64,000 bases of DNA from an uncultured Planctomycetota bacterium. Its GTDB lineage: Bacteria; Planctomycetota; Planctomycetia; Pirellulales; PALSA-1355. Location of the stretch: positions 53,235 through 117,234 of the forward strand of contig CAVQEL010000052.1 in NCBI GenBank assembly GCA_963711515.1, read 5' to 3'. Below the pieces are notes generated by a model. It worked only from the letters and a program-made list of their open reading frames with translations, was not told the DNA's origin and ran no database searches. Both the position numbers and the translations under genes were made by a program. Positions 2,107 through 47,661 of the stretch are shown here, in pieces (position 1 is the first letter of the stretch; the number at the start of each line of letters is the position of its first letter).

Positions 2107-2290
2107 CGAGGGCGGGCAATAGCGGGGGTATGGTTTGAGCAACCTAAGATTGTAGAGGGAGTCGAAGCACTTTAACAGGGACGCCCGCGCCGCGCGCCCG
2201 GGCAGAAGCCACGCTTCGTTCAACCCTGCCAAGGCGTTGCGCAGTGGACGCCGCACGCGTTAGTTTTTGATTTTGCCGAGCAACGCAACC

Positions 2291-3040: not shown

Positions 3041-3151
3041 CCATCTAAGCCGCGTGCCCCGTGGGGTTGCCGGGTGCTACAATCGAAGCGGTCGCCGACA
3101 TGGGCCCGTGTGGCGGTCGGCACCCGGGTCGTCTTTCACGTCTGGAATAGC

Positions 3152-11775: not shown

Positions 11776-11890
11776 GGAATAAGCGCGGGGACTGGGGATC
11801 GGCCATTAGGGACGGTTGATCAAAACGGCCGGCCGCCGGCTCGCAAATCCGCGGCCATTCCCGATGGCTTGCCTCACGCCGCTTCGGGCG

Positions 11891-12397
11891 TCAGGCGGCG
11901 TACAGGCTCGCGCGGAATTGCACCGCCAACGCGTAGAGTCCAAAGAAGCCGGCCGTGAACAGCAGATCGCCTGCCAGCGAATTGGCCAGAAACGGCACGG
12001 CGGCCGCGAAGCAGCGCGACGCTCCTTCGGTCGTGTGTGGGTACCAGGCGTACCAGACCGCGGCGTTACTCAAAGTGAAAAACGTCAACGATGAGCAAGC
12101 CGCCCCACTGCCGACCGTAAGCGGCGACAGATCGCGCCGCAGCAGCGATCGCCAGGCGATCGGCAAGCTCTGCGACAAGTAAACCGCGGCCATCACCCCG
12201 CGCTCGTAGCCGCCGAGGAATTGATCGCTGATCACCAGCGCCGCCAAGGGCACGCACAGCGCCACCGTGCGATGACGGAAGTAGAAGCCGGCAAACAGCG
12301 CCGCCGCCGTGACGGCACCGAAGTTCGGAGTCGTGCTCACCAACCGCACGGCCACCGCCAGCCCCACCAGGGCACAAAACACCGCCGCGCCGATCAT
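11891..12397 (-). CDS. Small polytopic membrane protein, DUF6580-like (putative ECF-S-component-like vitamin transporter)
   Basis: ATG 12397 (MIGAAVF..). It has 5-6 hydrophobic spans and the N-terminal pattern ..TPNFGAVTAAALFAGFYF that I associate with DUF6580 (from memory). Confidence 0.55.
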   Translation of the reverse strand: MIGAAVFCALVGLAVAVRLVSTTPNFGAVTAAALFAGFYFRHRTVALCVPLAALVISDQFLGGYERGVMAAVYLSQSLPIAWRSLLRRDLSPLTVGSGAACSSLTFFTLSNAAVWYAWYPHTTEGASRCFAAAVPFLANSLAGDLLFTAGFFGLYALAVQFRASLYAA

Positions 12398-12495
12398 TTT
12401 GTCGCGTTTCACGTCACTCGACTCCAATGCCCGGAAAATGAGACGTCCGTTCGTGGATCGCACCAAAAACGAACCTGGACCTGCCAGCAACAATT

Positions 12496-12949
12496 CTACT
12501 CGTACTCTTTAAACTCCCACAAGACGCGATCGTCAGGCTCAAGCGCGTACGTGCCGGCGCCCACCTCGGCCGTCTTGCCATTGACCGCGTAGATCCAGTT
12601 CTTGCCGTTGCCCTGGTTCTTCAAATCTCCGATTTGCGTGACCAGGGCGTTGGCTCCTCTGCCACGCTGGACGAACTTGACGCCGTGCCGATGTTTTTGG
12701 GCGGCCGCCAGCGCGTCGACCGCGGTCATCCCTTTGCTCCACGGCAATGCGGTCAGATGGACCTGAGCACCGTCGCCGTAATCGACCACGAGGCTGACGG
12801 TCTTCATCTTGGGTTCGGCGGCCGCTAGCCGCGGTGCCGACCGGCAGCAGCCCGACCGCCAGGAGCATGACGGCCAACACCCAGACCCCCAACGCCCAGA
12901 CCGCACGTCGCGCCGCCAGTCGGTTGTGCTGTCGCCACTGATCCTGCAT
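12496..12949 (-). CDS. DUF4430 (transcobalamin-like) domain protein with N-terminal anchor; apparent frameshift at ~12828
   Basis: C-terminal part VSLVVDYGDG...VDAL...GDLKNQGNGKNWIYAVNGK...YALEPDDRVLWEF. The N-terminal anchor MQDQWRQHNRLAARRAVWALGVWVLAVMLLAVGLLPV lies in the frame of ORF 12539-13048. Confidence 0.6.
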
Positions 12950-13202
12950 CACAGCATCCCCCCCTTGGGACTTGCAAAACGCCTTGTAACATAGGGCCAT
13001 CGGTCGAATTGTCAAACCGGCACACCGGACCGCGAATGCCGACCGCACCGGAGGTCGCGAGTCGCCGGGGTCTTGTGGGCGCCCCGCAGCGGCGGTATCA
13101 ATAGGTTTTTGCGAGCTAGTGCACTTCCCCGCTGCTGCCGCGTGAGCGGGCTCTCCTCACAAACAAACTCCAGGTTGTCGCCAGGCAAAAGGTGAACGAA
13201 CT

Positions 13203-15348
13203 ATGGCCGACGCAGGCTACATGACTCTCAGCACCGAAGACAAAGACATCGCGGTGCTCACGCTCGACGATCCTCGCGGCAGCGCCAACGTGCTCTCCCG
13301 GGCCGTGCTGGAAGAACTCGAAAAGAACCTCGACGAGCTGGAAAAAGGCAAAGGCTTAGCGGGGCTCGTGATTCGCTCCGGCAAGCCGGGCGTGTTCATC
13401 GTGGGGGCCGACATCCGCGAGTTCGTGGCCAACATCGACGCCCCCAAGGATCAAATCGTCGAGATGTGCAACCACGGCCGCAAGCTGTTCCAACGGTTGT
13501 CGAAGCTGCCGTTTGTGACGGTGACGGCCATCGTCGGCCAGTGCGTCGGCGGCGGCGCCGAGTTGGCCCTGTGGTGCGATCGCCGCGTGATGTCCAGCGA
13601 CTCGAAGGCCGCCTACGGGTTCCCCGAGGTGAAGCTCGGCTTGCTGCCGGGCTGGGGAGGCACGGTGCGGTCGCCGCGCGTGCTGGGTCTGTCGAATGCC
13701 ATCGAGCTGGTCACTTCCGGCGAATCGATCGACGCCGTGGCAGCCCGCACGATGGGGCTCATCTCGGATCTCGTCCCCTCGGATCATTTGCTCGCCTCGG
13801 CCATCGCCGTCATTCGCAGTGAACAGAAGACCGGCCAGTGGAAGCGCGACCGCGCAGCTGTGGGACAAACCCGTCGACATCAGCGACACCGAATTGGGAT
13901 TCCTGGGCGCCACGGCTTCGGCCCTGATCCAGGGGCAAACCGGCGGGCAGTATCCCGCTCCGCAAGTGGCGCTCGAATTGATGCTCGAAGCGTCCGGCCA
14001 GGACGCCGACGCCGCCGGATTGGCCGAAGCCAAGGCCATGGCCAGCCTTTTCGGCAGCCCGGTCAACCGCTCGCTGATCAACGTCTTTCTGCTCACCGAC
14101 CGCAACAAGAAGGACACCGGCATCGACCGCAAGGACGTCAAGGCGGACAAAGTCGCCAGCGTGGCCGTCATCGGGGCGGGTATCATGGGCCAGGGGATCG
14201 CGGCCGCCACGCTCAAGCGGCAGATGCCCGTGATGTTGTCCGACGCCGTGACCGAGGCCCTGGCCAAGGGCGTCCAGCAGGTCCTCGAAGAGGTGTCCTA
14301 CGACAAAGCGACGAAAGGCCCCGACGCCAAGAAGGCCGTCAAATTTGCCGGCCTGCTCAATCCTGCCACGGTCGACGCCGAGATGGCGCCTTGCGATCTG
14401 GTGATCGAAGCGATCGTCGAAAATCCGGAAGTTAAGAAACAGCTTTACGCGCGGCTGGAGCCGCTGTTGAAGCCCGAGGCCATCCTGGCGTCGAACACGT
14501 CAACGATCCCGATTACCAAGCTGGCGCAGGGGCTCAAGCGGCCAGAGCGCTTCTGTGGCATCCACTTCTTCAACCCGGTGCGGCGGATGCCGCTGGTGGA
14601 AGTGATCCGGGGCGAAAAAACGAGCGACGAAACCGTGGCCACGGCCGTGGCCTACGCCAAATCGATCGGCAAGAGCCCGATCGTCGTGAACGACGGTCCT
14701 GGGTTCCTGGTCAACCGGTTGTTGCTGCCGTACATGAACGAAGCGCTGGAGCTGATTTCCGACGGCGCCGAGGTCAAGGCCATCGAGCGGGCCGCCAAGG
14801 AATTCGGCATGCCGATGGGTCCGATCACGCTCTACGATGTCGTGGGGCTGGACACGGCCTTTTACGCCGGCCGCGTGATGTACGAGGCGTTCCCCGACCG
14901 CACGGTGGGCTCGCCCATCCTGGGCGCGATGGTCAAGGCCGGCCGGCTGGGACAAAAGTCGGGGGCCGGCTTCTTTGCCTACAAAGATCCCCGCGGACGC
15001 GGCACGCCGGATCCTGCAGCCGACAAGATCGTCAAAACCTACGTCCGCAAGGAACAAAAGTTCACCGCCGAGCAAATCACCCACCGGCTGTTTCTGCCGA
15101 TGGTGCTCGAGGCGACGCGCATTCTCGAAGCCAAGGTGGTTCGCAACGTCCGCGACGTCGACTTGGGGCTGATCTTCGGCGTCGGCTTCCCGCCGTTCAA
15201 AGGGGGCCTGCTGTTCTGGGCTGATACGATCGGGGCTGGCAAGATCGTCGAATTGCTGGGGCCCTTGGAAAGCCTCGGCCCGCGGGCTCAGCCCACGCCG
15301 ATGCTGTTGGAAATGTCCAAGAGTGGCAAGAAGTTTTACGATCTGTAA
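13203..15348 (+). CDS. Fatty-acid oxidation multifunctional protein (enoyl-CoA hydratase + 3-hydroxyacyl-CoA dehydrogenase, FadB/FadJ type); apparent frameshift at ~13853
   Basis: Crotonase half (VIRSGKPGVFIVGADI, GGGAELALWCD, FPEVKLGLLPGWGG) in ORF 13203-14435. HAD half (VAVIGAGIMGQGIA, NTSTIPI, HFFNPV) in ORF 13696-15348. The frames join at ..QWKRDR/QLWDKPV... Confidence 0.9.
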
Positions 15349-15494
15349 GCCGAGGTTTCGCCAGTCGCGCGGCGGGGGCGAGACGCACCGGCTCGCACTT
15401 TCGCCCTGGCCGGGATGGATAGAATGGTACGTGCCGCGACGATGCCGCAACGGCGCCGTCCGCTCTCACTTCAAAACCGCGAGGTAGTTGGCCG

Positions 15495-16652
15495 ATGAAA
15501 CGCGCCGTGATTGTCGATTGCGTTCGTACGCCGGTTGGTCGGGCCCACAAGGACAAGGGGGTCTTTCGCGAGGTCCGCTCCGACGACCTGGCCGTGCAAG
15601 TCGTGCAGGCGCTGATCGAGCGGACGGGCATCAATCCCGACGAAGTCGAAGACGTCGTCCTGGGCAACACGCAGCAGCAGGGCGAACAGGGAATGAATGC
15701 CGCCCGCATCGTCAGCCTGATGGCCGGCCTGGCCACGCACACCGGCGGCACCACCGTCAACCGCTTGTGCGGCTCGAGCCTGCAAGCCATCAACCAGGCC
15801 TCGCACGCGATCATGGCCGGCTTCGAGGACGTGCAGATCGTCGGCGGGCTGGAACACATGCAGCACATTCCGATGGACGCCGGAGTGAATCTGAATCCAA
15901 AAATGTTCCACCGCACGTCCAAAGGCGCGCTGGCCATGGGTGTGACGGCCGAATTCCTCGCCCAGACGCAAGGCATCTCGCGCGAAGAGCAGGACAAATT
16001 CGCCCTGCGGAGCCACAAGCTGGCCTCTGAAGCCTGGAAGAAGGGTGAGTTCAAGCGCGAGATGGTTCCGGTCTACGGCCGCGATGAAGCGGGCAACCGC
16101 ATCCTGGTCGACTTCGACCAGTGCGTCCGCGCCGACGCCAGCATGGAGAGCCTGGCCGCGCTCAAGCCGGCCTTCATGCCCGGCATGGGCACCGTCACCG
16201 CCGGCAACAGTTCGCCGCTCAATGACGGGGCCGCCGCGCTGCTGGTCATGTCTGAAGACAAGGCCAAGGAGTTGGGCCTCAAGCCGATGGTGCGCGTCGT
16301 GGCCACGGCCGTCGTCGGCGTCGATCCGGCCGTGATGGGCACCGGCCCCGTGCCGGCCACGAAAAAAGCCCTCAAACGGGCCGGCATGCAGCTTGCGGAC
16401 ATCGACGTCATCGAGCTGAACGAGGCTTTTGCCAGCCAGGCCATCGCCTGTATGCGGATGCTCAAACTCGACGAATCGAAGGTGAACGTCCGCGGCGGCT
16501 CGGTGGCCATCGGCCACCCGCTGGGTGCCAGCGGTGCTCGCATCACGACCACGCTGGTCAACAACATGGTGGATCGCGGGGCGAATCTCGGCCTGGCCAC
16601 GATGTGTATCGGCGTGGGGCAGGGTATCGCCACGATTTTCGAGCGAGTCTAA
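15495..16652 (+). CDS. Acetyl-CoA C-acyltransferase (3-ketoacyl-CoA thiolase, FadA type)
   Basis: Intact 385-aa ORF with NRLCGSSLQA (active-site Cys), NEAFA and the C-terminal GLATMCIGVGQG. Confidence 0.9.
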   Translation: MKRAVIVDCVRTPVGRAHKDKGVFREVRSDDLAVQVVQALIERTGINPDEVEDVVLGNTQQQGEQGMNAARIVSLMAGLATHTGGTTVNRLCGSSLQAINQASHAIMAGFEDVQIVGGLEHMQHIPMDAGVNLNPKMFHRTSKGALAMGVTAEFLAQTQGISREEQDKFALRSHKLASEAWKKGEFKREMVPVYGRDEAGNRILVDFDQCVRADASMESLAALKPAFMPGMGTVTAGNSSPLNDGAAALLVMSEDKAKELGLKPMVRVVATAVVGVDPAVMGTGPVPATKKALKRAGMQLADIDVIELNEAFASQAIACMRMLKLDESKVNVRGGSVAIGHPLGASGARITTTLVNNMVDRGANLGLATMCIGVGQGIATIFERV

Positions 16653-16876
16653 CGTTCCGTTAAGCCGACCGGCGAGGGCGGCAGGCGCGTCGGATTCGCA
16701 CGCTTCGGTCACCCGTCATGCCGCGGCTTGCCAGAGGGTTGGAAAAAACCGTCGGCAAAGCTCGCGTGCGCGCCTACCAATCCGATTTTCCGCGTGATAT
16801 CTTGAGTTGCGGCGGGTCCCCCACTTCTTCCGCTGCGCCGCAGTCTCAGTTTCGCATTGTTCAGGCAGGAATCGCC

Positions 16877-18550
16877 ATGCACGACGTCAACACAGATACG
16901 ATCCCCGCGATGTTTGCCCGCCGCGTGGCGGCCGACGGCGACAAGCCTGCGCTTCATTTTCGCAAAGACGGAAACTTCACTTCGCTCAGTTGGAACGAGT
17001 TGGCCTCGCAAGCGCGGCGCATGGCCGCGGCACTTGTGAAGCTGGGCGTAAAGCCCGGCGACCGCGTCGTGCAAGCCTCGGAAAATCGCTACGAATGGAT
17101 CGTGCTCGACCTGGCCGTGCACATGGCTCGGGCCATTCACGTGGCCGTCCACTCGACGCTTACCGGACCGCAGATCGCCTGGCAGATCAGCAACTGCGGA
17201 GCAAAGCTGGTCGTGGTCTCCGGGCCCGAGCAGGCGCAAAAGCTGGCGGCCGCGGCGTCGCAACTTCCGAAGGGAGTGAAATTCGTTTCCTACGATCCCT
17301 GCGACGGCGAAATCGCCGGCCAGGCGATCGAGCCGCTGTCGAAGTACATGGCCGAAGTCACCGACGAAGAAGGCCGCAAGCTGGAGCAGCAAGCCCTCGA
17401 AAACACGACGCCCGACGATCTGGTCACGATCTTGTATACCTCTGGCACCACCGGCGAACCCAAAGGCGTGATGCTGTCGCACCGCAATCTGACGTCGAAT
17501 TGCCACGCCGTGATGTTGGCCTTTACGGTCGAGCCCGGCGACGTGCGATTGAGCTGGCTGCCGCTGTCGCACATCTTTGCCCGCACGAGCGACTACTACC
17601 TGTGGATTGCTGCCGGCGGCGAGCTGGCCCTCTCGGCCAGCCGCGAGACGATCATTCCCGATTGCCAGGAGATCAAGCCGCATTACCTCAACGGCGTGCC
17701 CTACTTTTTCGACAAAGTGATGCGCACCTTGCAGGAGAAGGGAGTCGCCGATGCACCCGGCGCCCTGCAGGCCCTGTTGGGCGGCCGCATGAAGATGTGT
17801 TGCGCCGGCGGCGCGGCCCTGGCCGATCACGTCAACGAATACTTCCTCAAGCACAACATCGTGCTCGTACAAGGCTATGGCCTCACGGAAAGCTCGCCCG
17901 TGATCAGCGTCGGCACGCAAGAGGACCACCGCGTGGGCACGGTCGGCAAGATGATCCAGGGCGTGGAAGTGAAGATCGCCGAAGACGGCGAGGTTCTGAC
18001 CCGCGGGCCGCACGTGATGGTCGGTTATTGGAACCTGCCGGAGGACACGGCCGAGACGATTCGAGACGGCTGGCTGCACACCGGCGACTTGGGAACGATC
18101 GAAGACGGCTTCCTCAAGATCACCGGACGCAAGAAGGAGTTGATCGTCACGGCCGGCGGCAAGAACATTGCCCCCAGCTACATCGAGGCGCTGTTGACGG
18201 CCGATCCGCTGATTATCCAGGCCATGGTCGTGGGGGACGCCAAAAAGTATCTGGCCGCCCTGATCGTGCCCGATCCGGACGTGTTGCGGGCCGAAATCAT
18301 CAAGCGACAGATTCCGGTGTTCACGCCGGAGCAGGCGCTGGCGCACCCGGACGTGCAGGCCCTGTATGCCCAGCGGATCAAAGAGCGGTTGGCCGACGTC
18401 TCGCACGCCGAGCAGGTGCAGAAGTTCACGCTTCTGTCGCGCGGCTTTACGCCGGAGACGGGCGAACTGACCTTCAAGCTGAGCCTGAAGCGCGAGGTGG
18501 CGATGCAGAACTTCGCCAAAGAAATTGACGCAATGTACAGTGACAATTAA
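16877..18550 (+). CDS. Long-chain fatty acid--CoA ligase (AMP-forming)
   Basis: ATG 16877. AMP-binding motif LYTSGTTGEPKGVMLSH, plus GYGLTESSP, TGDLG and GRKKELIVTAGGKNIAP. Confidence 0.9.
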   Translation: MHDVNTDTIPAMFARRVAADGDKPALHFRKDGNFTSLSWNELASQARRMAAALVKLGVKPGDRVVQASENRYEWIVLDLAVHMARAIHVAVHSTLTGPQIAWQISNCGAKLVVVSGPEQAQKLAAAASQLPKGVKFVSYDPCDGEIAGQAIEPLSKYMAEVTDEEGRKLEQQALENTTPDDLVTILYTSGTTGEPKGVMLSHRNLTSNCHAVMLAFTVEPGDVRLSWLPLSHIFARTSDYYLWIAAGGELALSASRETIIPDCQEIKPHYLNGVPYFFDKVMRTLQEKGVADAPGALQALLGGRMKMCCAGGAALADHVNEYFLKHNIVLVQGYGLTESSPVISVGTQEDHRVGTVGKMIQGVEVKIAEDGEVLTRGPHVMVGYWNLPEDTAETIRDGWLHTGDLGTIEDGFLKITGRKKELIVTAGGKNIAPSYIEALLTADPLIIQAMVVGDAKKYLAALIVPDPDVLRAEIIKRQIPVFTPEQALAHPDVQALYAQRIKERLADVSHAEQVQKFTLLSRGFTPETGELTFKLSLKREVAMQNFAKEIDAMYSDN

Positions 18551-34325: not shown

Positions 34326-35470
34326 ATGAAAGTTGCCAAGTTGGCCTTGGAGGATGGAACGGTCTATCCGGGGCATTCTTTTGGAGCCCCGGGGGAAGTC
34401 GACGGCGAAGTGTGTTTTAACACGTCGATGACCGGGTATCAGGAAATCCTCACCGATCCGAGCTACCGTGGCCAGATCGTGACGATGACCTATCCCGAGA
34501 TCGGCAATTACGGCGTCAACGACGAGGACGTCGAAAGCGCCGGGCCGCAGCTGGCCGGTTTCGTGGTTCGTAATCGCAGCCGCGTGGCCAGTAACTTTCG
34601 CGCCGGCGGAACACTGGAAGAATACCTGCGGCAGTACGGCGTGGTGGGCATTTCGGGCATTGATACCCGATCGCTGGTCCGCCGGATTCGCGAGCACGGG
34701 GCGCTCAAGGGAGTGCTTTCGACCGAAGATCTCGACGACGCCAGTCTGGTCCAAAAGGCCCAAGCCAGCCCTGGCCTGGTGGGGCGCGACCTGGTGCGCG
34801 AGGTGATGCCCAAACAGCCCCGCACGTGGAACGAGCGGCTCAGCACCTGGTCGAAACTCGATCCGCCGGCCGAAGCGGACGGAACCAGGGCCGGCAAACC
34901 GCCACACGTCGTGGCGATTGACTACGGCATGAAATGGAACATTGCCCGGCACTTGTGCAACCAGGGGGCCCGGGTAACGATCGTGCCGGGGACGACTCCT
35001 AACGCCGAGATCCTGGCCCTCGAGCCCGACGGGGTCTTCCTGTCGAATGGCCCGGGCGATCCGGAGCCCTTGGTCTATGCCATCGACACGATCCGCCAAC
35101 TGCTGGGCAAGACACCCCTTTTCGGCATCTGCCTGGGCCACCAGTTGCTGAGCCTGGCCTGTGGGGCCACGACGTTCAAGCTGAAGTTCGGCCACCGTGG
35201 CGCCAACCAGCCGGTGCAGGACCTTCAAACCGGTCGCGTGGAAATCACGTCGCAGAACCACGGATTTGCCGTGCGCGAGGACAATCTGCCCGATTGTCTG
35301 GAGGTGACGCACCGCAACCTGAACGACCAGACGATCGAAGGCGTGCGGCATCGCGAGCTGCCGGCCTACGGCGTGCAGTATCATCCCGAAGCGTCGGCCG
35401 GCCCGCACGATAGCGACTACCTGTTCGAGCGGTTTTGGGAGCTGATTGACCGGAGGCGCGTAGCGGTGTG
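34326..35470 (+). CDS. carA: Carbamoyl-phosphate synthase small (glutaminase) subunit; true stop not identifiable, as the frame stays open to 35981
   Basis: ATG 34326. Motifs TGYQEILTDPSY, GICLGHQLL (catalytic Cys) and QYHPEASAGPHD. Homology-like sequence ends at ..LFERFWELID (~35455). The remaining 500 nt are antisense to the convergent gene and not protein-like. Confidence 0.85.
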
Positions 35471-35475
35471 CTGGG

Positions 35476-36809
35476 TCATTCTTCGAACAGCACGCTCAAC
35501 ACGTCGATCGCTGCCAGGGCCCGTTCCGGCCGGCGAACTTCCCCTTCGGCAAAGTCGGCACAAATCGCCAGCGCACGGCGCAGGTACTGCTCGCGCGATT
35601 GTTCGACCAGCTCGGGTTCCAGCTCCGAGGCCGCCAGCGGCCACGCGACTTCCAGTTCGGCCAAAGCTTGCGCATCGCCGGAGATGGCGGCGAAGACCAG
35701 GTCGTCCACCCGTTCCAGCATTTCCAGGACGTGCAGCCGGCTGTTGGGCCAGCTTTGCCGCCAGCAGGTCCAGCTCGGCCCCGCGTTCGGCCGGAGCGTC
35801 CACGAGCAAGCCGGACGGTGCCGCATGCGCCGCGTCAGTCCGTGATCCGGCTTGGGAGGGCCGGATGCATTGGCGCCGGTCGAGGTTCTTGGCGGCGGGT
35901 CGTTTCGGTACGGTCCGGCTGAGTCTGCCGATGCGTCCGCCTGAATGCTGGCTGCCAGTTCATCCAGGCCCGCGGTGGTGAGGCCCGGTCGCGGTTTCTC
36001 CAGTTCGGCTGCCAGGGCCGAGAGTTTGCCAGAAGTGAGGTTCGACGCGATCCAACCCGCCCAGCCGTCCCAGGTCACGTCCGATCCAGCGGTAGGGTCC
36101 AATTGCAATACGGTGAATCCTTGTCGGGCGGCAGCCCGCGCGGCAGCGGCGTCGGCCGGGCAGCGCCAGATCGCGCACCGGTCGGCCTGGCGAGTGTTCA
36201 AGCCGGTCGTGAAGGAGAACTCGACGCGGCATTCGACCGGCAGCAGGTTGAACAATCCCGCCACCAACTGTTCGCAGGGAATATCCGACGAAATCGCCAG
36301 CCGCCGGTTGGCCAACGCCGCTTGCACGAGCATCGCCATGGCCGCGGGCCCCGGCTCGCGGGCCAATTGGGCCAACAGCCCGGGATCGACCGCCGGCGCG
36401 CGGCCCCCCAGTTGGATCGACGGGAGCGACTCGGGCACGGGGTCCTCGACGCACAAGCGCGCCGCTGGCGGCGGCCGCTCGCAGGACGGCGAACGGGTCG
36501 TTGGCAAAGCGGGCCATGACCTGCGGCGGCACGACCAGGTATTGCGTATACACCAGCTCCCCGCCGCGGCCGCTGTATTCCCGTCCCGCCACGCTGGTGC
36601 GCGAAACGCTGTAGGCTCCGCTGGCCAGCGTGAAGAAGTTGACGCTCCCGTTCCTGGCCCGGCTGTGTCAGCAGCGAGCCGTGTGACGGCCCCCACACGG
36701 ACAACTCCCGGGCATCGGCCTCGGACAGGTGCCCGCTACGGCTGAGGAGTTGATAGCCCTGGGCTCGGTCCGTTTTGGCCGACGTGAAAATGGCTTGTTC
36801 GATGAGCAC
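35476..36809 (-). CDS. GAP1-N2-like 'GTPase-associated' protein (hypothetical); about four apparent frameshifts (~36645, ~36460, ~35815, ~35738)
   Basis: GTG 36809 with GAGGA 11 nt upstream. The N-terminus is LIEQAIFTSAKTDRAQGYQLLSRSGHLSEADARELSVWGPSHGSL. Protein-like reading hops through ORFs 36198-36809, 35960-36592, 35476-36696 and 35417-35809, and ends ..AIDVLSVLFEE. Confidence 0.55.
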
Positions 36810-36892
36810 GACCGCCGCGTCCTCGCAACAGGTGAAGGTATTTGAACGGCTTCATCTGCGCCGTGAGCTGACCGCCAGCACCGCCGGGTTTG

Positions 36893-37805
36893 TCAGGTCC
36901 GCAAGTTCTCGACCAGCCACTCGAACGGCTCGATGATGCCGCGCGGCTCGATCCGCAGTGGCACGGTCTGCTCGCCGGCGGCCCGCACCGGCCGGGTGGC
37001 GCAGGCGCCGGCCACTCCCGCCGCGAAGAACCGGTGCCGCTGGAATCGCTGCTGGCAGATTCGCGACAAGCCGGGCGCGTGGCGGCGGGCGTACGCGGCC
37101 GGATCGTCGAAGCACGATTCGCACTGATCGGCCTTGCTGAAGATCAACGCCACCGGGCCGCGTGGCCCAGGAATTCTTCGAGGTGCCCTCCAGCTCCGAC
37201 AAGTGGCTGAGCAGCTTCATCGTGAAGTAATCTTCGTCGATTGAGCCCGACTGCAGCTTTGTGCCGTCGATCAAGATCATCACGCCGTCGCACCGGCTCA
37301 GCAGCGAATGGATCACACGATAGGAGCGCGGGTGTTCGACCTCCTCGAACAGCGCTTCGCCGGCCATGTCGGGGAGCACCATTTCGACCGGCTGGCGGTG
37401 CTTCGGGCTGCGCAACTGGCAGTGGACCCAGTTCCAGCGGTCGGGCTCGTTGGGCGTCTTGCTGGGAAACTCGCACCGCGCAGCGCCCCCAGCGTGTTGT
37501 GCTGCAGCGTGACGGAAAAGCCGCCCGCGGGCCGAAAGCTGCAAGTGCTTCGGCTGCCGCGAGAGCATGTCCAACAGCATGCCCAGGTACACGGTCTTTC
37601 CGACGCCGCTGGGCCCCAGTGCCGCGAACATCACGGGTTTGACGTTCTTCGACTGGGCCTGATGGGCGAGGATCATCGGAGCGTAACAGTTGCGACAGGC
37701 CTCGGCGTCGGGAGTATTGCCCTCGCCGCAGATCAAGCAGGGGATCTGGTTGCCGTAATGGGCCAGACGCAACGAATCCAATTCCAGAGCGACGCCGCGA
37801 TTCAT
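36893..37805 (-). CDS. Zinc-ribbon-fused P-loop (TRAFAC-type) GTPase; apparent 1-nt insertion at ~37154
   Basis: ATG 37805 overlaps the stop of the upstream gene (ATGA). CxxC-x10-CxxC (CLICGEGNTPDAEACRNC), G1 GPSGVGKT, G3 DMAGE, and G4 SKAD after the frame switch ..WATRP/VALIFSKADQ (ORF 36893-37153). The stretch 37440-37560 may hide a compensating indel pair. Confidence 0.7.
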
Positions 37806-38958
37806 GTTTGGTTCTCCGCCAACTGGCACTCGGTCGGTTCTGCCGCGCTTTGCGGCTCGGCGTCCGCGTCATCCTGCCGCGGCGAAAGGTCGCCGAGCTT
37901 GATGGCGCAACGGAATCCGATATTGTGCTTGCGCGCAGCGCCACGTCGGCACTTTGAAAGTGGCAAGTGGCCTGGTTATCGAGATACGTGTCAAAGGCCC
38001 CGCCGCGAACGCTCTTCATCTTGGTCTGCACGGTCGACAGCTCGGTACCTTCGAAGGCAAAGGCGTCGGCGGTCCACTCCCAGACGTTGCCGATCAACTG
38101 CTGCACGCCCCCCACGCTCACGCCGCCGGGAAACTCGTAGACGCTCACCGTGCGCCCCGGGCCCGAGCCCCACAGGTTCGCCCGGCTGCGGTCCATCGCT
38201 TCGCCCCACGGATAGCGGCGCATCAAGAGCGGATGCCCCGGGATCGACACCGGCCAACTCCCCGCTTTGACCCACTCGGCGTCGCTGGGCAGCCGCTTGC
38301 CGACCCAGCGGGCATAGGCCACGGCCTCGTACCAATTGACGCCGATCACCGGATGGTTTTCCTCGCCGCGCGCAAAGCGACCGTTCTTCCAGAACCGCGG
38401 GCCGGGATGCCCCGTCGAATCGACGAAGTCCAACAGCGCCGGCCAAATCTCCGGATCCCAGATCTGCATCTGTTCGTATCCGCCCGTGGCGACGAAGTGG
38501 TAATACTGGCCGTTGGTCACCGGGTACCGGTCGAGATAAAAGGCTTCCAGACTCAACAGCGGCCCGCCAGCCGATTTCTGTCCCGTTTCGCCGTCGTCGC
38601 TCGCACGGCGCACGACGATCTGGCCCTCGGGCACCAGGCACATCCCATCGGCCAAGGCGGCACGCGTCCGCGCCAGTTGTTCGAGCGACAGGTTCTTGAT
38701 CAATTGCGGGCGCAGCAACAGCGCGTAGCGATTCTGCGACAACATTTCATCGATCACGGTCTGGATTTCGCGGTTGGCAGCAGCCGCAGCCACAGGCGCT
38801 TCGTTCGGCCCACTGCCGGGCGTAACCGATTCGGCCTGGGGGCTGTCCTCAGTTCGCTTGGCCCGGCCGCTCGCACAGGTCGCGCCAATGATGCCGCCGA
38901 ACCATTCCGGCAGTTTCGACAGCACCGTGCCGGGGGTTGTCGAGTTAGGTGATCCCAT
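37802..38958 (-). CDS. FGE/SUMF1-fold (formylglycine-generating-enzyme-like) domain protein with helical N-terminal region; apparent frameshift at ~37940
   Basis: Motifs YPVTNGQYYHFV, GVNWYEAVAYARWVGKRLPSDAEW, YPWG, GNVWEWT and RGGAF. The canonical C-terminal NIGFRCA appears only after a 1-nt shift, and that frame then stops at 37802-37804. Confidence 0.8.
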
Positions 38959-38998
38959 GGAACCTCTCCGCGTTTATTGAGCGACTCACCGTGTGGCC

Positions 38999-41526
38999 TT
39001 ATCGTTTGTTCGCCAGGTTGCGAATCTTGCTTTTCTGCAGGGCCTCGAATTGCTCCATGACCGATCCCAACACGCGATCATCCGGCCGCGCGACCCCGGC
39101 CGGGGACTCTGCCGGAGGCTGTGGAGGCGGGCTAACCGGGGCCGAGTAGGCCGGCACGGCGCCGCTGCGATGGGCCAACGCCTCGGATTGCATTTCCACC
39201 GCTCTGCGCAACTGGCGCAGCTCCTCGCTCCAATTCTCTCGATCCGCCGCAGCGGTCCGTTTCTGTTCGGCCAACTGTTCGATCAACTCGGCGGCGCGAT
39301 GCCGCAGCAAGTCCAGCTCGTTTTCCAATTGCTGCCGTTCCGACTCCGCGTCTGCCACGCGCTGTTGGAGCGCCGCAGCGTCGGGTGCCTGGCTCAATTG
39401 CTCGGAGAGTCGGCCCAATTCGGCCTGGGCCGCTTCGAGCTCGCTGCGCAGTTGCTCCGCCCGGGCCGCGTCCTCGCCGGCTGTCCCGGCTTCCTCGCGC
39501 AAGCGTTCAAGCTCCTCGCATGCCGCCCGCCGGCTGGACTCGATCTGTTCGATTTCCCGCTGCAATTGTTCGTTCTGTTGCATCTGGGCCTGCAATCGCT
39601 GCTGGCTGCGGGCCAGTTCGGCTTCGGCGTCGGCCAGCCGGCCGCGGGCCGCAGCCATCTCGGCGGTCTGCTCGTCCGACGGTTGGGCGGCCCGGGCGGC
39701 CCAGGCGTCCGACTGACGTTCCAAGGCCTCGCGCAGGTGTCGCAGCTCGTCGCTCCAGCTTTCGCGGTCGGCGGCTGCCTGGCGCTGCCCTTCGGCCAGT
39801 TGATCCGTCAGATCCGCGGCGCGTTGGCGTGTCGCTTCGAGCTCGCCTTGCAGATGCTGGCGATCGGTCTGGCTGGCGGCGAGCTGCTGTTCGAGCCCGG
39901 CCATTTCGGCCGGAGCCGTGACTTGTGTCCGCAGACGTTCGATTTCGTCCTGTGCGGCCGACAATTCGCCTCGCAGCCGGGCGACTTCGGTGGCGCTTTC
40001 GGCCAATGGAGCAAATTGTCCGCGCAACTGTGCCAATTCTTCGCGGGCGGTCTCGCGGTGAGCCTCGAGCCGGCTGATCTCTTCGCGAAGTTGTTCGTTT
40101 TGCTCGACCTGTAGCTGCAGCCGGCTGGAGCTCTGCGCGATTTCGGCTTCGGCCTGCGTGGCCCGCTGCATAGCCGCAGCCAGAGCGGCGGCGTTTTCTG
40201 CCGATTGGTCGCCGCGCTCCTCCCAAGCCGCGGCCTGCCGATCGAGCGATTCGCGCACCTGGCGCAGCTCCTCGCTCCACTGCTGCCGTTCGGATGCGGA
40301 CATGCGGTGTTGTTCTTCGAGCGCCTCGCCCAGATCGGCGGCCCGCCGCCTGAGTGACTCCAGCTCGCCTTGCAACTGCTGGCGCTCGTTTTGCATGGCG
40401 CACAGTTGATCTTGCAAGTCGGCGGCTTCGGCCGGAGCGGTCAGTTGCTCGCGCAGCCGCTCGATTTCCGCCTGCGCCGCCGACAACTCGCCAGCCAGCC
40501 GTGCCGACTGCGACGCCGCTTCCGCCAGGGCGCGAACTGCCCTTGCAGATTTGCCAGTTCCTCGCGGGCCGCCTCGCGTTGCGCTTGGAGCTGCTCGATC
40601 TGGTCGCGGAACTGTGCACATTGCTCGGATTGAATTTGAAGTCGCTCGGTGCCTTGCGCGATTTCGGCTTCGGCCTGCGAGAGCCGGCCGCGGGCGGCAG
40701 CCAAGGCGGCCGCGTCGTCCGACGCCTGAGCGGCACGCTGCAACCAGGCTTCGCTCTGCCGCTCGAGCACCTGCCGCATGTGGCGCAACTCTTCGCTCCA
40801 GCGATCGCGCTCGGCCTCGGACTGCCGCTTCTGTTCGGACAGCAATTCACCCAATTCCGCGGAACGGTGCCGTAGCGTTGCAACCTCCTGTTGCAATTGG
40901 TGCCGCTCGGCCTCGACGGCCGCCAGTTGCGTTTGCAACTCCGCTCCGTCACCCGCTCCGCCTGACGGTTCGCGCAGCCGCGCGATCTCGGCCTGGGCGG
41001 CCTCCAATTCGCCGCGCAGCCGCGCCGCTTCGGTCGCCGCCTCGGCCAAGGGGGCAAACTGTCCGCGCAATTGCGACAGCTCTTCGCGGGCTTCGCGATA
41101 GTCGGTCTCCAGCCGCGCAATCTGCGAGCGCAAATGTTCGCTTTGTTCGGCGGCCATTTCCAACCGCTGCTGGTGCTGCGAACACTCCGACTGCACCCGC
41201 GCAATCTCCTGCGTCGCCTGCGCAAGCTCGGACGACGTAGTGTCCAACTGTTTCTTCAGGGCCGTGCATCGACCCGACAGTTCACCTTCGACCCGGGTCC
41301 GCTCGGCGATCTGTCGTTCGCACTCTGTCAGGCTGCGGCGGGCCTCGGCCAATTGGCGGCGGCAATCGGCCAGCTCGGTGCCGCGGTGCTCGCAGTCCTG
41401 CAACGCCTGTTCCAGACACTCCGACACCGTCTGATAACCGCGACGCAGTTCGCGGATCGACTCCTGGAGCGGGCGTCCGACGGCGTTCAGCGGTAATGAC
41501 AGGTCGAGCGACACATTCATTCCCAT
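38999..41526 (-). CDS. Giant coiled-coil protein (~840 aa) built of ~172-aa tandem repeats; apparent 1-nt deletion (CCCC to CCC) at ~40528
   Basis: ORF 40441-41526 continues into ORF 38999-40621 at ..LQGQFAP/LAEAASQSARL... Heptad-rich, Cys-containing N-terminus, and a Pro-rich tail ending DRVLGSVMEQFEALQKSKIRNLANKR. Confidence 0.75.
39150..41090 (-). repeat. About 3.7 tandem coding repeats of ~516 bp inside the coiled-coil gene
   Basis: The unit REEL.QLRGQFAPLAE.A.E.ARLRGEL.AAQ.EI.RLR....APAE...L..QL......RQ.LQ.ELE..R.RAA.L...L.EQ.R....ER..WS.ELR..R..L.RQ..AW..R..Q.....AALAAA..R..QAEAEIAQ...RLQ.Q.EQ..Q.R..I..LE..RE.A recurs with diverged residues. Confidence 0.8.
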
Positions 41527-41887
41527 CAGTTTGGGAGCAGCCGTGAACGCGCGGGTGGCCGCTCGGCCAAAACGCCAAAACGGACCGCAACTATAAGCCC
41601 GCGGCGAAATGGCCCAGACGTGCGTGTTGGGGGCAGCCGCCTTGGAAAATCTAGGTCATGACCGGCCGCTAGCAAAAGCCGCGCGTTCGCCAGGAGGCAC
41701 GTTTGTGACCCGCGCCGGGGACCAAGTTTAGGCCATTTTGCAACGCTTAAAGCGTTTTTATATAAATGCTTACGCCATGAAGACGAAATGCGCAAACTGT
41801 AGAGACCTTGCGGAAAACAGAAAATATGGCACCTTTGAGGCAACACACAGGGCGGTGAATGGATGGGTTCCACTTGAGAGGAGAACG

Positions 41888-42355
41888 ATGATGATGCTGA
41901 ATCGCTGCTTGTTAACCGGCCTGGCATGCGGAGTGGTGCTGGCATTGGGCCCCGCCGAAAGCGCCCACGCCCGCGTCTTAAAGCGGACGGACGCCGCGCC
42001 GGCGAGCCTGACGAAATCGCTGGGTGGCTGCGCAACTCCGGAGCCGGCTTGCTGTGCTCCGGAGCCGGTTTGCTGCCCGAAACCATGCATTCATTACCGG
42101 CACCGTGGACCGAAGCTGTGCTGTGGCTGCGAACCGTCGCAACCGATCGTGCTGCACGTGAAGGACCCCTGCACCGGATGCGAAACCGACGTGCCGGTTT
42201 GCCTGCCGGCCTGCTGCGAAGGAGAGCCGAAGGTCTGCTGCGGCACCGGCTTTCTGGGACGCGACGTGGTCGAGTACCAGTGGTGTTGCGGGTACAGTGT
42301 CCGCGTTGCCTTCAAGCATTGCGGCGACCTGCTGGTGACGACCTGGGGCCGCTAG
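41888..42355 (+). CDS. Secreted cysteine-rich protein (hypothetical)
   Basis: ATG 41888 follows a GAGAGGAGAA RBS. Signal peptide MMMLNRCLLTGLACGVVLALGPAESAHA. The mature part has more than 20 Cys in CC/CxxC/CxC clusters (ACCAPEPVCCPKPC, LCCGCEP, CTGCE, CLPACCEGEPKVCCG, WCCG). Confidence 0.7.
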   Translation: MMMLNRCLLTGLACGVVLALGPAESAHARVLKRTDAAPASLTKSLGGCATPEPACCAPEPVCCPKPCIHYRHRGPKLCCGCEPSQPIVLHVKDPCTGCETDVPVCLPACCEGEPKVCCGTGFLGRDVVEYQWCCGYSVRVAFKHCGDLLVTTWGR

Positions 42356-42461: not shown

Positions 42462-42857
42462 ATGGTGCTGGACCGCCGCCGTCCAGAAAGTCCAGAGGAG
42501 CCCGCCGTGGCTAAGGATACGAGGCGCAAGAAACGCCAGGATCGCCGCAACGAAGGACGCGACGACGAGAGCCGCGGCACCGAGGCGTTGACCGTCGTCT
42601 GGATGATGTCGGTGACCACCACGCTGCTGTGCGGGCTGGCCGCCGCGGTGATCCTATTGGCCGCCGGCAATCATCCGGGCGCCGATCGGCCTCGGCTGTT
42701 CGGGCGGCTGCTGCATTTCAGCGCGTTCGTCTCGGCCATCCTATCGCTTTTGCTGTTGGCGGCCGTGCTCAAATTCCGCCAGCAGCCGCCTCCGCCGATC
42801 ATCACCTGGTCAGCCGTCACGATTGCCTTGCTGACACTCGGCGCGGCCTTTCTTTAG
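42462..42857 (+). CDS. Membrane protein (hypothetical; basic N-terminus plus 3 TM)
   Basis: 131-aa ORF with an Arg/Lys/Asp-rich N-terminal 40 aa followed by three hydrophobic spans. Confidence 0.5.
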   Translation: MVLDRRRPESPEEPAVAKDTRRKKRQDRRNEGRDDESRGTEALTVVWMMSVTTTLLCGLAAAVILLAAGNHPGADRPRLFGRLLHFSAFVSAILSLLLLAAVLKFRQQPPPPIITWSAVTIALLTLGAAFL

Positions 42858-46269: not shown

Positions 46270-46381
46270 GACAAACTCTCACCGTGGACGAATGGGTTGA
46301 GAAACTTCTGGCAGTCGCTGCCGTCTTATTGTACGGCGAGCGTCACGGTTGCCAAATGCACTAGCTATCGCGCCATGTTGG

Positions 46382-47661
46382 CTACGCGGCCAGTAGAGTC
46401 GGGCGACGGGCCGAACTGACCACGTCGGGCCGCTTGAGCGCCACGGCGGCCAGCGTTCCGCCAAAAGCCACCGACATCTTGAGCGCGCAGACGAACTGGC
46501 TCCTGCGCCCACCAGCGGAATGCAGTCCAGATCGCACTCCGGGTCGGGCCGCGTCAGATTGAGCGTCGGTGGAACGAACCCGTCGCGCATCGCCAGCGCC
46601 GTGATCGCCAGCTCCACGCTGCCGGCGGCGTTGATCAGGTGTCCCAGGATCGACTTGGTGGCGCTGGCGCACAGCGAGTCGGCGGCGCGGCCCATCGCTC
46701 GTCGAATCGCCCGCGCTTCGGCCACGTCGTTTTGCTGCGTGGCCGTACCGTGAACGTTGATGTAGCCGATGTCCTCGGGCCGCAGCCCTGAAACGCGCAG
46801 CGTGTCCGAAATAAGATGCACCAGTGCGTCGCTTTCCACGTCGACGCCCGTCACGTGATGGGCCATCGCCAGCAAGCGCCCGCCGGCCACCTCGGCGTAG
46901 ATCTTCGCGCCGCGGGCCAGCGCGTGGCTAAGCCGCTCGAGCACGAACATCGCGCCCCCTTCGCCCATCACGAATCCCTGGCGATCGAGATTGAACGGCC
47001 GGCAGGCCTGTCGCGGGTCGTCGTGATTCGCGAGCACGCGCATCTGGTGAAAACCAGCGGCAAACAGCGGCGTGATCGCTTCGGCGCTGCCGGCCAGGGC
47101 CAGGTCGCATTGGCCGTCCTCAATCGCCCGCACTGCGGTGAGCACGGCAATCAGTCCGCTGGCGCAAGCCGTTGAATGGCTCAGCCGCGGACCCATCAGG
47201 CCGTGTCGCGTCGCGACCTGCCAGCAGGCCGTATTCGGCAGCCACTGCTCGCGCCACGGGATATGCGTGGGCGGATTCAGATGCGCGCATCCAAACTGTT
47301 CGACCAGCCCGCGCATATCACCCATATGCGCGCTGACCGCGCAGCCAAAGCGATCGGGGTCTATGGTATGACACGAGACTCCGGCGTCGTCCATAGCTTC
47401 GTCGGAGACGCGTTCGCAAAGTGCGAGCACCTTGAGCCGGTCAGGAGCGTCCAATTCAATATCGACCGGTGCGCCGATCAACATTCCATCGGGAATTCCG
47501 GTCAGCCCGGTCAGACGGCGCATGGAGCTTCGTCCTTCGCGCACGGCTTGCCATACGCTTTCGCGATCGGAGCCGGCCGAAGCCAGCAATCCGATGCCGG
47601 TGATCACGACGCGTTCGGAGTCTCGTCGATCGTGGTGCACGCCTGCTCCCGCCGAGGTCAT
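46382..47661 (-). CDS. Beta-ketoacyl-ACP synthase (KAS I/II, FabF-like); apparent frameshift at ~46508
   Basis: Cys-His-His triad contexts STACASG, VHGTAT and KSILGHLINAAG. The C-terminus ..DCIPLVG/RRSQFVCALKMSVAFGGTLAAVAL continues in the frame of ORF 46382-46672. Confidence 0.85.

Follow-up and report, generated by a model that had tools for sequence, protein, structure and literature searches.

The question raised by four minus-strand genes at 35476-41526 of the window, a 64,000-nt stretch of the Pirellulales contig CAVQEL010000052.1, is whether they form a working system and, if so, whether it acts against invaders or as a GTPase-regulated scaffold, the two readings offered by an earlier note. 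The quartet runs head to tail: gene A (38999..41526) encodes an 842-aa alpha-helical coiled-coil protein and is separated by 40 nt from gene B (37802..38958, a 385-aa FGE/C-type-lectin-fold protein), whose stop overlaps the start of gene C (36893..37805, a 303-aa protein with a zinc ribbon and a TRAFAC GTPase domain of the DO-GTPase family), and after a further 83 nt follows gene D (35476..36809, a 444-aa GAP1 protein), which is convergent with carA. These coordinates bear out the layout described earlier, including the 4-nt ATGA overlap of B and C (37802..37805, minus strand), an instance of translational coupling also present in 60 of 73 related loci. The divergent 361-nt intergenic stretch that separates A from g152 (41527..41887), presumed to bear a promoter, does have the lower GC content noted before (0.578 versus about 0.66), but consensus scans for promoters and terminators returned no more matches than expected by chance and identified no promoter. 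Across this region from A, g152 is a conserved small gene.

Profile searches were performed with frame-corrected proteins, from which all Pfam scores given here derive and in which every assignment exceeded the curated cut-off; the domain calls made earlier for B, C and D all held. C matched DO-GTPase1 (51.6 bits) and DO-GTPase2 (45.2 bits; cut-off 27), not a housekeeping GTPase family. It carries all the motifs previously reported, namely a single CxxC-x10-CxxC zinc ribbon (C23/C26/C37/C40, about 37686-37739), the G1 motif GPSGVGKT, DMAGE within the Walker B motif PDMAGE and the guanine-specific G4 motif SKAD, together with an invariant switch-region motif, FPxKTPNEPDRWNW; the usual catalytic Gln is absent from its DxAGE Walker B. 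The protein is nearly fixed in length (302-303 aa) and 95% identical to its nearest relative. C is a zinc-ribbon DO-GTPase. It belongs to the DO-GTPases and not to the G3E family, and it is neither of the Rag/Arf/Rab type nor of the MglA family. D, encoded directly downstream, is the cognate GAP1-N2 partner of C, with 56.6 bits against GAP1-N2 (cut-off 24) and the N-terminus described before; behind the GAP1-N2 domain (aa 3-123) lies a middle alpha/beta domain, which a disordered linker connects to a helical C domain.

The association of a DO-GTPase, GAP1-N2 and an FGE ("FGS") domain in planctomycetes has already been noted computationally by Kaur, Burroughs, Iyer and Aravind (2020, PMC7159879). 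Since FGS domains are, by their account, present in some of the GAP1-N2 systems of planctomycetes, the combination, which the earlier note could not place in any named system, is covered in all but its coiled-coil partner. Like the systems of Kaur et al., the locus encodes a DO-GTPase that bears a zinc ribbon and a Walker B glutamate, an N2-type GAP1 immediately downstream, an FGS/FGE-fold protein, a repeat-rich non-enzymatic partner and, in most lineages, a membrane-proximal feature (the TM helix of B). Unlike them, it has a single GTPase and a single zinc ribbon rather than two, its operon is without an effector or EAD domain, and its neighbourhood is stably syntenic rather than mobile, with strong purifying selection. 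The usual FNIII-repeat protein is missing; its replacement by a coiled coil of variable repeat number and length is new, and only this partner is unreported. Our literature search found no experimental work on any DO-GTPase/GAP1 system.

Gene A encodes a long helical rod whose ends are conserved and whose number of repeats is lineage-specific. A conserved head (aa 1-146) is followed by the repeats (39158..41088, minus strand, from pairwise alignment within A) and by a C-terminal coiled-coil module, which is also conserved; a Pro-rich linker then leads to the terminal helix, RVLGSVMEQFEALQ. Tandem units and a coiled coil had been recognised before in a protein of ~840 aa, but the unit measures 174-175 aa instead of ~172: there are three full copies (unit 1, 40567-41088; unit 2, 40046-40566; unit 3, 39521-40045) and a partial fourth (39158-39520), all on the minus strand and with approximate coordinates because they were corrected for a 1-nt deletion. 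The full copies align without gaps at 56-59% pairwise identity and match unit 4 at 39-43% (alignment score 487 versus 77 ± 9 in shuffles), and Tandem Repeats Finder detected no repeat at the nucleotide level. Hydrophobic periodicity of 3.4-3.6 residues exceeded 500 of 500 shuffles in five of six proline-delimited segments and all but 5 of 500 in the sixth; A gave no match to curated families, its coiled-coil matches all being sub-threshold. Orthologs of ~290-890 aa retain the head and the C-terminal module, and their repeats were expanded independently, in lineage-specific and sometimes near-identical copies (L012, L028, L033). This turnover would also be compatible with a rapidly evolving sensor, which counts against a scaffold.

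Of 84 related loci, all from Planctomycetota MAGs, 68 have the A-B-C-D order, down to 39% identity in D, and co-conservation of the quartet reaches well past close relatives; most of the remaining loci are contig ends. The module is typical of many uncultured members of the Pirellulales and Thermoguttaceae, with no cultured isolate among the best matches. It is not indispensable, since D occurs without A-B-C nearby, or beside an A fragment, at L021, L025, L026, L057, L068, L069 and L076. The flank order (KAS, rhodanese, GT21, radical SAM, small genes, ABCD, convergent carA) is common to the window, L001, L002 and L083 and in part to L084 and L085. GAP1-N2 systems were read by the family's definers as conflict systems in mobile neighbourhoods (PMC7159879; eLife 9:e52696): GAP1 would coordinate sensing, the DO-GTPase would act as a threshold switch, the FGS domain would bind an invader molecule and a repeat-protein superstructure would block the invader or kill the cell. 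Such a function is conceivable but rather unlikely here, both in its sensing and switching part and in the roles given to the FGS domain and the repeats. The trio does belong to the published class, in which planctomycete FGS domains are explicitly mentioned, the repeat expansions of A in L012, L028 and L033 are reminiscent of the "rapidly evolving repeats" described for it, and the module is lost or truncated in some genomes. However, housekeeping flanks are conserved where D identity is only about 40-57%, and instead of the variable or defence-island context considered earlier we observed stable housekeeping synteny, with no integrase, transposase or defence gene seen around the operon; this stable, non-mobile chromosomal context is new. 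Only one locus per genome was present among 80 loci examined, no relative was found on IMG/VR viral contigs, PADLOC returned coiled-coil noise and one weak P-loop match only, and the quartet encodes no toxic domain, be it a nuclease, a pore, a protease or another kind. Strong purifying selection acts on each of the four genes (dN/dS: A, 0.07-0.19; B, 0.04-0.21; C, 0.03-0.11; D, 0.10-0.28; carA for comparison, 0.06-0.14), C evolving more slowly than carA. By this synteny, the absence of a toxic domain, the purifying selection and the lack of IMG/VR or PADLOC support, an anti-invader role is weakened, and a GTPase-regulated scaffold fits better.

Whether this copy is alive is a separate matter, since the operon contains 11 frame disruptions, more than the count of at least seven given before. 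They lie on the minus strand, one in A (~40528-40530, a missing C in GCG(C)CCCTGG), one in B (~37936), three in C (~37527, +1; ~37480, -1; ~37155-37159, +1) and six in D (~36652, 36458, 36205, 36161, 35870 and 35735). A dead relic with real frameshifts is improbable, although other MAGs show natural partial deletions, PGM and radical SAM are undamaged and carA is disrupted in its last codons only. Once corrected, C, D and B keep 137 of 137 family-invariant residues (61, 21 and 55 columns, respectively), out-of-frame stretches still encode invariant peptides such as GGFSVTLQHNTLGAL in C, and their identity to the outgroup L001 is no lower than that of the intact sister L083, with no excess divergence. 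Both +1 and -1 indels occur, and most of them lie outside homopolymers; frameshifts are also present in the FabF-like KAS gene and the carA end, in the sister MAG L083 the operon is intact and housekeeping genes are split, and related long-contig MAGs carry random frameshifts in housekeeping genes. Because all invariant residues are kept and substitutions are not in excess, assembly or base-calling errors are the most likely source of the frameshifts, and the real decay that the earlier note left open appears unlikely. The local excess of about 10-fold (11 disruptions in 6 kb versus 3 in ~19 kb of homolog-covered flank) is a point against this explanation and in favour of a relic.

B opens with an N-terminal segment of weak hydrophobicity; a linker and the conserved helix MLSQNRYALLLRPQ lead into its FGE/C-type-lectin-fold domain (aa 104-352, about 37904-38649, minus strand), which contains all the motifs listed before (YPVTNGQY, WYEAVAYARWVGKRLPSDAEW, YPWG, GNVWEWT, RGGAF and NIGFRCA). 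With 140 bits over the full length of FGE-sulfatase (PF03781) the fold is complete, as claimed, and shares conserved structural motifs with FGE (SUMF1) and EgtB/OvsA; unlike FGE, however, B and its family have neither catalytic cysteine, and B therefore cannot be a formylglycine-generating enzyme. Its best PDB sequence matches were EgtB (E 2.6e-24) and OvsA (E 2e-20), which are sulfoxide and selenoxide synthases, and it scored 100 bits against the NCBIfam egtB model, far below the cut-off of 360. The iron ligands of EgtB are carried by its N-terminal DinB domain, which B lacks; without this domain and without the FGE cysteines, B is predicted to be non-catalytic. In distant orthologs a clear N-terminal TM helix precedes a cluster of basic residues, and such an anchor is present in most lineages; a B protein devoid of both cysteines and membrane-anchored in most lineages is new. 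That B is an EgtB/OvsA-like or other oxidative FGE-fold enzyme, with the GTPase pair as its assembly or metal-insertion chaperone and A as a scaffold, is most improbable, since the synthase matches and the established ability of G3E-type GTPases to act as metallochaperones are outweighed by the missing cysteines and DinB domain, the NCBIfam score and the assignment of C to the DO-GTPases rather than G3E.

The fold of D was approached with one AF2 model of the ortholog P0001 (74% identical) and a Foldseek search. The predicted GAP1 structure has longin topology, and its matches to TagF, FLCN-FNIP2 and DENND10 are new. TagF, the type VI secretion post-translational repressor, was the top match (9t0n, E 2.2e-4, 348 aligned columns), followed by chains of the FLCN-FNIP2 complex (E 5e-4 to 1e-3) and DENND10 (1e-2); global TM-scores are low (0.18-0.37), the E-values are modest and no sequence-level similarity to DENN/longin proteins or TagF was detected, points that weigh against the modelled likeness to DENN and longin proteins. 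Like the longin-DENN regulators (FLCN-FNIP2, DENND10, C9orf72-SMCR8, GATOR1 Nprl2/3), which are among the best whole-length matches of the model, D is predicted to be tripartite (longin-topology N domain, alpha/beta middle, all-helical C domain) and adjoins the gene of a presumed GTPase, although this partner is not of their GTPase type. For TagF we know of no GTPase partner, and T6SS genes are not found near the operon. In MglA/MglB of Myxococcus and other prokaryotes, a small TRAFAC GTPase is likewise paired with a regulator that is encoded next to it and is built on a Roadblock/longin-type platform, and a part in organising the cell spatially is a further plausible parallel, but D is ~3 times larger than MglB and has longin rather than Roadblock strand order, C falls outside the MglA family, and A and B have no counterpart there.

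Taken as a functional, vertically inherited four-gene GTPase-switch module, a reading to which we assign a probability of about one half, the locus would most likely act as a membrane-proximal, GTPase-regulated scaffold, an anti-invader role being less likely. D may bind C via its longin-like platform and set the nucleotide state of C as a GAP and/or GEF, and could supply the catalytic residue missing from C. The dead FGE fold of B would serve as a binding domain for ligand or protein recognition. GTP-bound C and membrane-tethered B would recruit or release the A rod via its conserved terminal modules, and thereby the module may build up, close to the membrane, a scaffold or tether whose length is defined. 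In these planctomycetes it would thus work as a switch of the polarity or cytoskeleton type and not as a suicide or defence device.

An earlier note made from the sequence had described four head-to-tail genes on the minus strand, and the ORF table and three-frame translations bore out both their arrangement and their coordinates: a coiled-coil protein (A, 41526-38999, 842 aa as rebuilt), an FGE-fold protein (B, 38958-37802, 385 aa), a zinc-ribbon DO-GTPase (C, 37805-36893, 303 aa) and a GAP1-N2 protein (D, 36809-35476, 444 aa). As frameshifts break all four genes, the proteins were reconstructed using orthologs as guides. A and B are separated by 40 nt and C and D by 83 nt, while B and C are coupled by an ATGA overlap of 4 nt, retained in 60 of 73 loci. 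The operon converges with carA at its 3' end, and its 5' end borders a 361-nt intergenic stretch where GC is lower (0.578). Scans for sigma-70 promoters and intrinsic terminators gave matches no more numerous than in shuffled sequences, so no promoter or terminator is claimed. The identification of the feature was correct, and the operon is real and well conserved.

The earlier count of at least seven frame disruptions, which had left real decay as an option, was right in that there are many; the reconstruction raises it to 11, and technical error is favoured over decay. On the minus strand, A and B carry one frameshift each (~40530 and ~37936), C three (~37527 (+1), 37480 (-1) and 37159 (+1)) and D six (~36652, 36458, 36205, 36161, 35870 and 35735). 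In carA, on the plus strand, an extra base at ~35456 in the last codons removes the stop, so the ORF runs on for ~178 codons past its normal end (35440-35981), over the 3' end of D. Ten of the 11 operon frameshifts and that of carA fall within 2.5 kb (35456-37936) with the highest GC of the region (0.67-0.70), many of them in GCGC, CGCGG or CCWGG contexts, with A/T lost or G/C gained. Methylation-linked nanopore error was considered, but DNA of 67-70% GC should hold such contexts in any case; the cluster may also stem from base-calling bias, low coverage or a mixture of strains. About 19 kb of homolog-covered flanking DNA holds three frameshifts, at ~46508 (minus) in a FabF-like beta-ketoacyl synthase (KAS) gene (46279-47661), at ~3721 (plus) in a gene for an NAD-dependent epimerase/dehydratase fused to a GT2 domain (2267-4101) and at ~4569 (minus) in a GDSL lipase gene. 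The assembly thus has scattered indels beyond the operon, at about one tenth of the operon's density.

The 10-fold local excess speaks for a dead operon copy in the window, a question separate from that of function. Against this, invariant peptides can still be read from the shifted stretches: all invariant columns of C (61), D (21) and B (55) are intact, as are 175 of the 180 columns conserved at 90% or more. By a rough estimate, 11 real indels would be accompanied by ~5 nonsynonymous changes in the 137 invariant codons, and none was observed. Nor is there excess divergence from the outgroup locus L001, to which A, B, C and D of the window are 74.5, 75.4, 91.4 and 74.0% identical, compared with 73.9, 76.7, 91.4 and 69.5% for the intact operon of a sister MAG (L083). 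The operon indels are a mixture of +1 and -1 changes, mostly outside homopolymers, and related long-contig MAGs show random frameshifts in housekeeping genes with the operon intact. Taken together, the intact invariant residues, the outgroup identities, the type of indels and the housekeeping frameshifts of the MAGs make technical error likelier than decay; we regard it as highly probable and a dead copy as quite improbable.

Corrected C matched the Pfam families DO-GTPase1 (PF19975, 51.6 bits) and DO-GTPase2 (PF19993, 45.2 bits) above the cut-off of 27, and its single CxxC-x10-CxxC zinc ribbon has invariant cysteines (C23, C26, C37 and C40), in agreement with the earlier assignment to a GTPase-centred class. 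It carries the motifs G1 GPSGVGKT, Walker B PDMAGE and G4 SKAD and a strongly conserved switch-region motif, FPxKTPNEPDRWNW; D, A and G of the Walker B motif are invariant, and at least 90% of 32 orthologs retain its Glu. Neither C nor D is represented by a model in NCBIfam. An AF2 model of an ortholog of C (P0121, 95% identical; pLDDT 75, pTM 0.77) shows a similar likeness to many TRAFAC GTPases, GBP1, septins, EF-Tu, Rnd1 and Rab among them, and no family is foremost, consistent with C being a member of a distinct TRAFAC family.

Kaur et al. (2020, PMC7159879) defined DO-GTPases as TRAFAC members that have a Glu in Walker B and in many cases zinc ribbons, and GAP1 as proteins with N1 or N2, M and C domains. 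The trio of C, D and B is of this already described kind, known computationally only: like the GAP1-N2 DO-GTPase systems of that paper, the operon has a TRAFAC GTPase with the Walker B Glu and a zinc ribbon (one, where those systems usually have two), and the GAP1-N2 gene lies directly downstream of the GTPase. The operon departs from its class by its coiled-coil partner and its non-mobile context. A variable-repeat coiled coil stands upstream in the place of the 'rapidly evolving FNIII-repeat protein' of other GAP1-N2 systems, the fn3 family being absent from all five Pfam-annotated neighbourhoods, and the synteny is conserved, with no variable effectors. The text of Kaur et al. (2020) names no longin, DENN or Roadblock domain, nor a coiled-coil partner for planctomycete systems.

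Protein A consists of 68.5% A, E, Q, R and L. Three gap-free repeats of 174-175 aa share 56-59% identity and are joined by a partial fourth (score 487; shuffled sequences 77 +/- 9), with two prolines per unit. When only L, I, V, M and F were counted as hydrophobic, a periodicity of 3.4-3.6 residues was stronger than in any of 500 shuffles for five of the six proline-delimited segments, and in the sixth only five shuffles were not beaten; the whole-rod test with Ala included as hydrophobic was negative. Tandem Repeats Finder detected no repeat in the DNA of A because the units are too diverged in nucleotides. Pfam holds no curated family for A, and a homology search with its C-terminal module returned only nine fragments. 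Every ortholog of A combines a head domain with a conserved module at the C-terminus (ER..LE.ELE.VR.RAAEL..., then a Pro/Ala-rich linker, DPVLDSVMAQFEMLQ and basic residues), and the rod between the two spans about 290 to about 890 aa. The hydrophobic moment of the C-terminal helix is 0.35-0.41, and its strict sequence conservation would argue for a protein-docking motif sooner than for a membrane-targeting helix. Repeat expansions are lineage-specific, with 174-aa units in the window's clade and 57-63-aa units in three other loci. In one of these (L033, 5915-7849), six copies among the ~57-63-aa tandem repeats are nearly identical, and the A orthologs of L012 (2228-4012) and L028 (5909-7462) have ~57-63-aa tandem repeats of their own; the rod has thus expanded recently and independently in several lineages.

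The complete FGE/SUMF1 domain reported for B stands as a fold (FGE-sulfatase, 140.4 bits, Pfam) but not as a catalyst. Active FGE has two catalytic, copper-binding cysteines, and B lacks both: in an alignment with human FGE their positions (C336/C341) read FDTYLD--NQA, and no Cys occurs there across 65 B-family members. The sole conserved Cys of the catalytic region pairs with a different Cys of human FGE, in an RCAARS stretch. In the PDB, EgtB and OvsA come closest in sequence, but the alignment covers only their FGE-like halves (B aa 99-298). These sulfoxide synthases have an N-terminal DinB domain with an iron-binding triad, and B has no DinB domain. Its NCBIfam matches to EgtB, SenA and OvoA are all far below threshold (TIGR03440, 100.6 bits; cut-off 360). 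Judged from these residues, B is not an active FGE, and with neither the catalytic Cys nor a DinB domain it is best read as a binding module. In most lineages B has a membrane anchor: orthologs from loci where D is 40-46% identical begin with a clear TM helix (up to 2.4 on the Kyte-Doolittle scale across 19 aa) and then a cluster of Arg residues, an arrangement that by the positive-inside rule would place their FGE domain in the cytoplasm. The N-terminal segment is degenerate in the window's own clade (0.6-0.9).

Corrected D matched GAP1-N2 (PF20013) with 56.6 bits against a Pfam cut-off of 24, as had been proposed. GAP1-M scored 16.6-20.8 bits, under its cut-off of 24, some orthologs having a precomputed PF20014 match, and the C domain had no Pfam match. 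An AF2 model of an ortholog of D (P0001, which shares 74% identity with corrected D; alignment of 23 sequences, pLDDT 80, pTM 0.64) has three parts, namely an N domain with the longin strand order, an alpha/beta middle and, after a disordered linker, an all-helical C domain. In a Foldseek search of the PDB with this model, TagF ranked first (E 2.2e-4, 348 columns), followed by chains of the FLCN-FNIP2 complex (5e-4 to 1.3e-3, 380-470 columns) and DENND10 (1e-2), with C9orf72-SMCR8 (E to 0.1), GATOR1 and a Lokiarchaeal longin domain at lower ranks. TM-scores were low, 0.17-0.37 overall and 0.17-0.28 for longin-DENN chains when normalised to the query. Searching PDB sequences with the D profile yielded nothing beyond noise (E ~0.5), and there is no sequence-level longin-DENN signal. 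The likeness in the model is a resemblance, in which membership is not demonstrated. The longin domain, defined by its strand order, was stated to be absent from prokaryotes (Levine et al. 2013, PMC3747258), and DENN and d-DENN domains were described as known only inside the DENN module, itself discussed as eukaryotic (Zhang et al. 2012). A literature search found no earlier link between TagF and DENN, or between DENN, longin and GAP1.

A search with D yielded 188 proteins, nearly all of 435-480 aa with PF20013, the named ones from Pirellulales or Planctomycetia MAGs. Among 1.84 billion representatives, the D profile matched 1,516 cluster representatives at E <= 0.001 and 690 at E <= 1e-30. 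With one genome scanned per species, 212 genomes had a relative, the best 80 of which are all MAGs, 79 labelled Planctomycetota or uncultured bacterium and one 'Candidatus Nealsonbacteria'. The contig of the latter (L020, JABMRB010000441.1) bears a complete A-B-C-D operon with a 46% identical D; mis-binning of Planctomycetota DNA is the probable reason, rather than an occurrence in the CPR. With ortholog HMMs, the order A C-terminal module-B-C-D was found in 68 of 84 loci, the misses lying mostly at contig ends, and D directly follows C in 77. The quartet is co-conserved beyond close relatives, with traces of synteny where D is only ~44% identical.

In the Pfam-annotated neighbourhoods, genes for KAS, rhodanese, GT21 and radical SAM proteins and two small genes precede the operon and convergent carA follows it. 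This full pattern occurs in the window, the sister MAG, the outgroup and L002; the sister MAG is 81% identical in nucleotides to the window and collinear across 13.8 kb. The two most divergent loci (L084 and L085, D ~44% identical) have carA or GT21 and radical SAM genes nearby, together with mraZ, uvrC, lutABC and hemA. Approximate dN/dS ratios of six intact ortholog pairs, in which dS is close to saturation, were 0.07-0.19 for A, 0.04-0.21 for B, 0.03-0.11 for C and 0.10-0.28 for D, compared with 0.06-0.14 for carA.

Several loci depart from this arrangement. In L021, L068, L069 and L076, D stands by itself amid unrelated housekeeping genes. In two loci labelled Thermoguttaceae (L025, 9484-11311; L026, 5065-6889) and one labelled uncultured Planctomycetaceae (L057, 9243-11335), a C-terminal fragment of A lies directly upstream of D, with an additional 67-aa remnant of C in L057, which looks like natural loss of B and C. 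The otherwise stable synteny breaks in L084, where a ~6 kb block (11487-17305) inserted between D and carA encodes a 761-aa protein without family match, small ORFs and a PIN_3 toxin-like gene. The two small genes, divergent from A in the window, encode a Cys-rich 152-aa protein (CC..P..CC motifs) whose N-terminus resembles a signal peptide (41888-42352, plus) and an 83-84-aa hydrophobic protein (42606-42854, plus). Both accompany the operon in about 30 loci, distant ones included, and adjoin D in L021 although A-C are absent; a functional link with the operon is possible.

We favour, with a probability of about 0.5, a housekeeping scaffold. C would be the switch, and since its DxAGE motif lacks the Ras-like catalytic Gln, hydrolysis probably needs a partner. 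D may bind C on a longin-type platform, acting as GAP and/or GEF; B would anchor the complex at the membrane, its lectin fold binding a ligand or protein; and A would form a rod of lineage-specific length that docks via its conserved termini. The output could be the GTP-dependent building of a membrane-proximal scaffold or tether. Kaur et al. (2020) called the neighbourhoods of these systems mobile and inferred a conflict function. The context of this operon, which the earlier note wished checked for variable or defence-island surroundings, is instead one of housekeeping synteny: no mobile-element or defence gene was seen in the Pfam-annotated neighbourhoods, the D alignment found no relative among IMG/VR viral contigs, and the operon has no effector domain. 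In PADLOC-DB v2, A gave only coiled-coil cross-matches (LmuB, JetC and PbeC), C only a weak P-loop match to DolB (E 0.0045, noise), and B and D nothing. We therefore hold a conflict role unlikely for this operon. An enzyme-chaperone role, set beside an FGE fold without its catalytic Cys pair, is very improbable.

The DO-GTPase/GAP1 class is large and known, with predicted roles, from one comparative-genomics paper only; for at least this branch there is now evidence of housekeeping cell biology and not mobile immunity. The planctomycete variant is unusually clean: its four proteins are soluble or cross the membrane once, accessory effectors are absent, and the operon is conserved and syntenic. 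It is thus well suited as a starting point for biochemistry, and the predicted fold of D suggests a testable mechanism, GAP or GEF action on a GTPase without the catalytic Gln. If that fold reflects homology, the longin-DENN regulator architecture would be placed in bacteria, against the papers of 2012-2013. That GAP1 is a true bacterial longin-DENN-type regulator, and the operon a prokaryotic counterpart of a small GTPase, a DENN/FLCN regulator and a golgin-like tether, is a tentative proposal from the model and on balance doubtful. Were it true, the operon would pair a TRAFAC GTPase and a longin-DENN GAP/GEF with a membrane-anchored lectin-fold receptor and a length-variable coiled-coil tether, and the entire class would have to be re-read as GTPase-regulator pairs, not immunity devices. 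In Planctomycetota, whose cell organisation is a long-standing puzzle, it would then belong to core cell biology: membrane organisation, polarity or budding.
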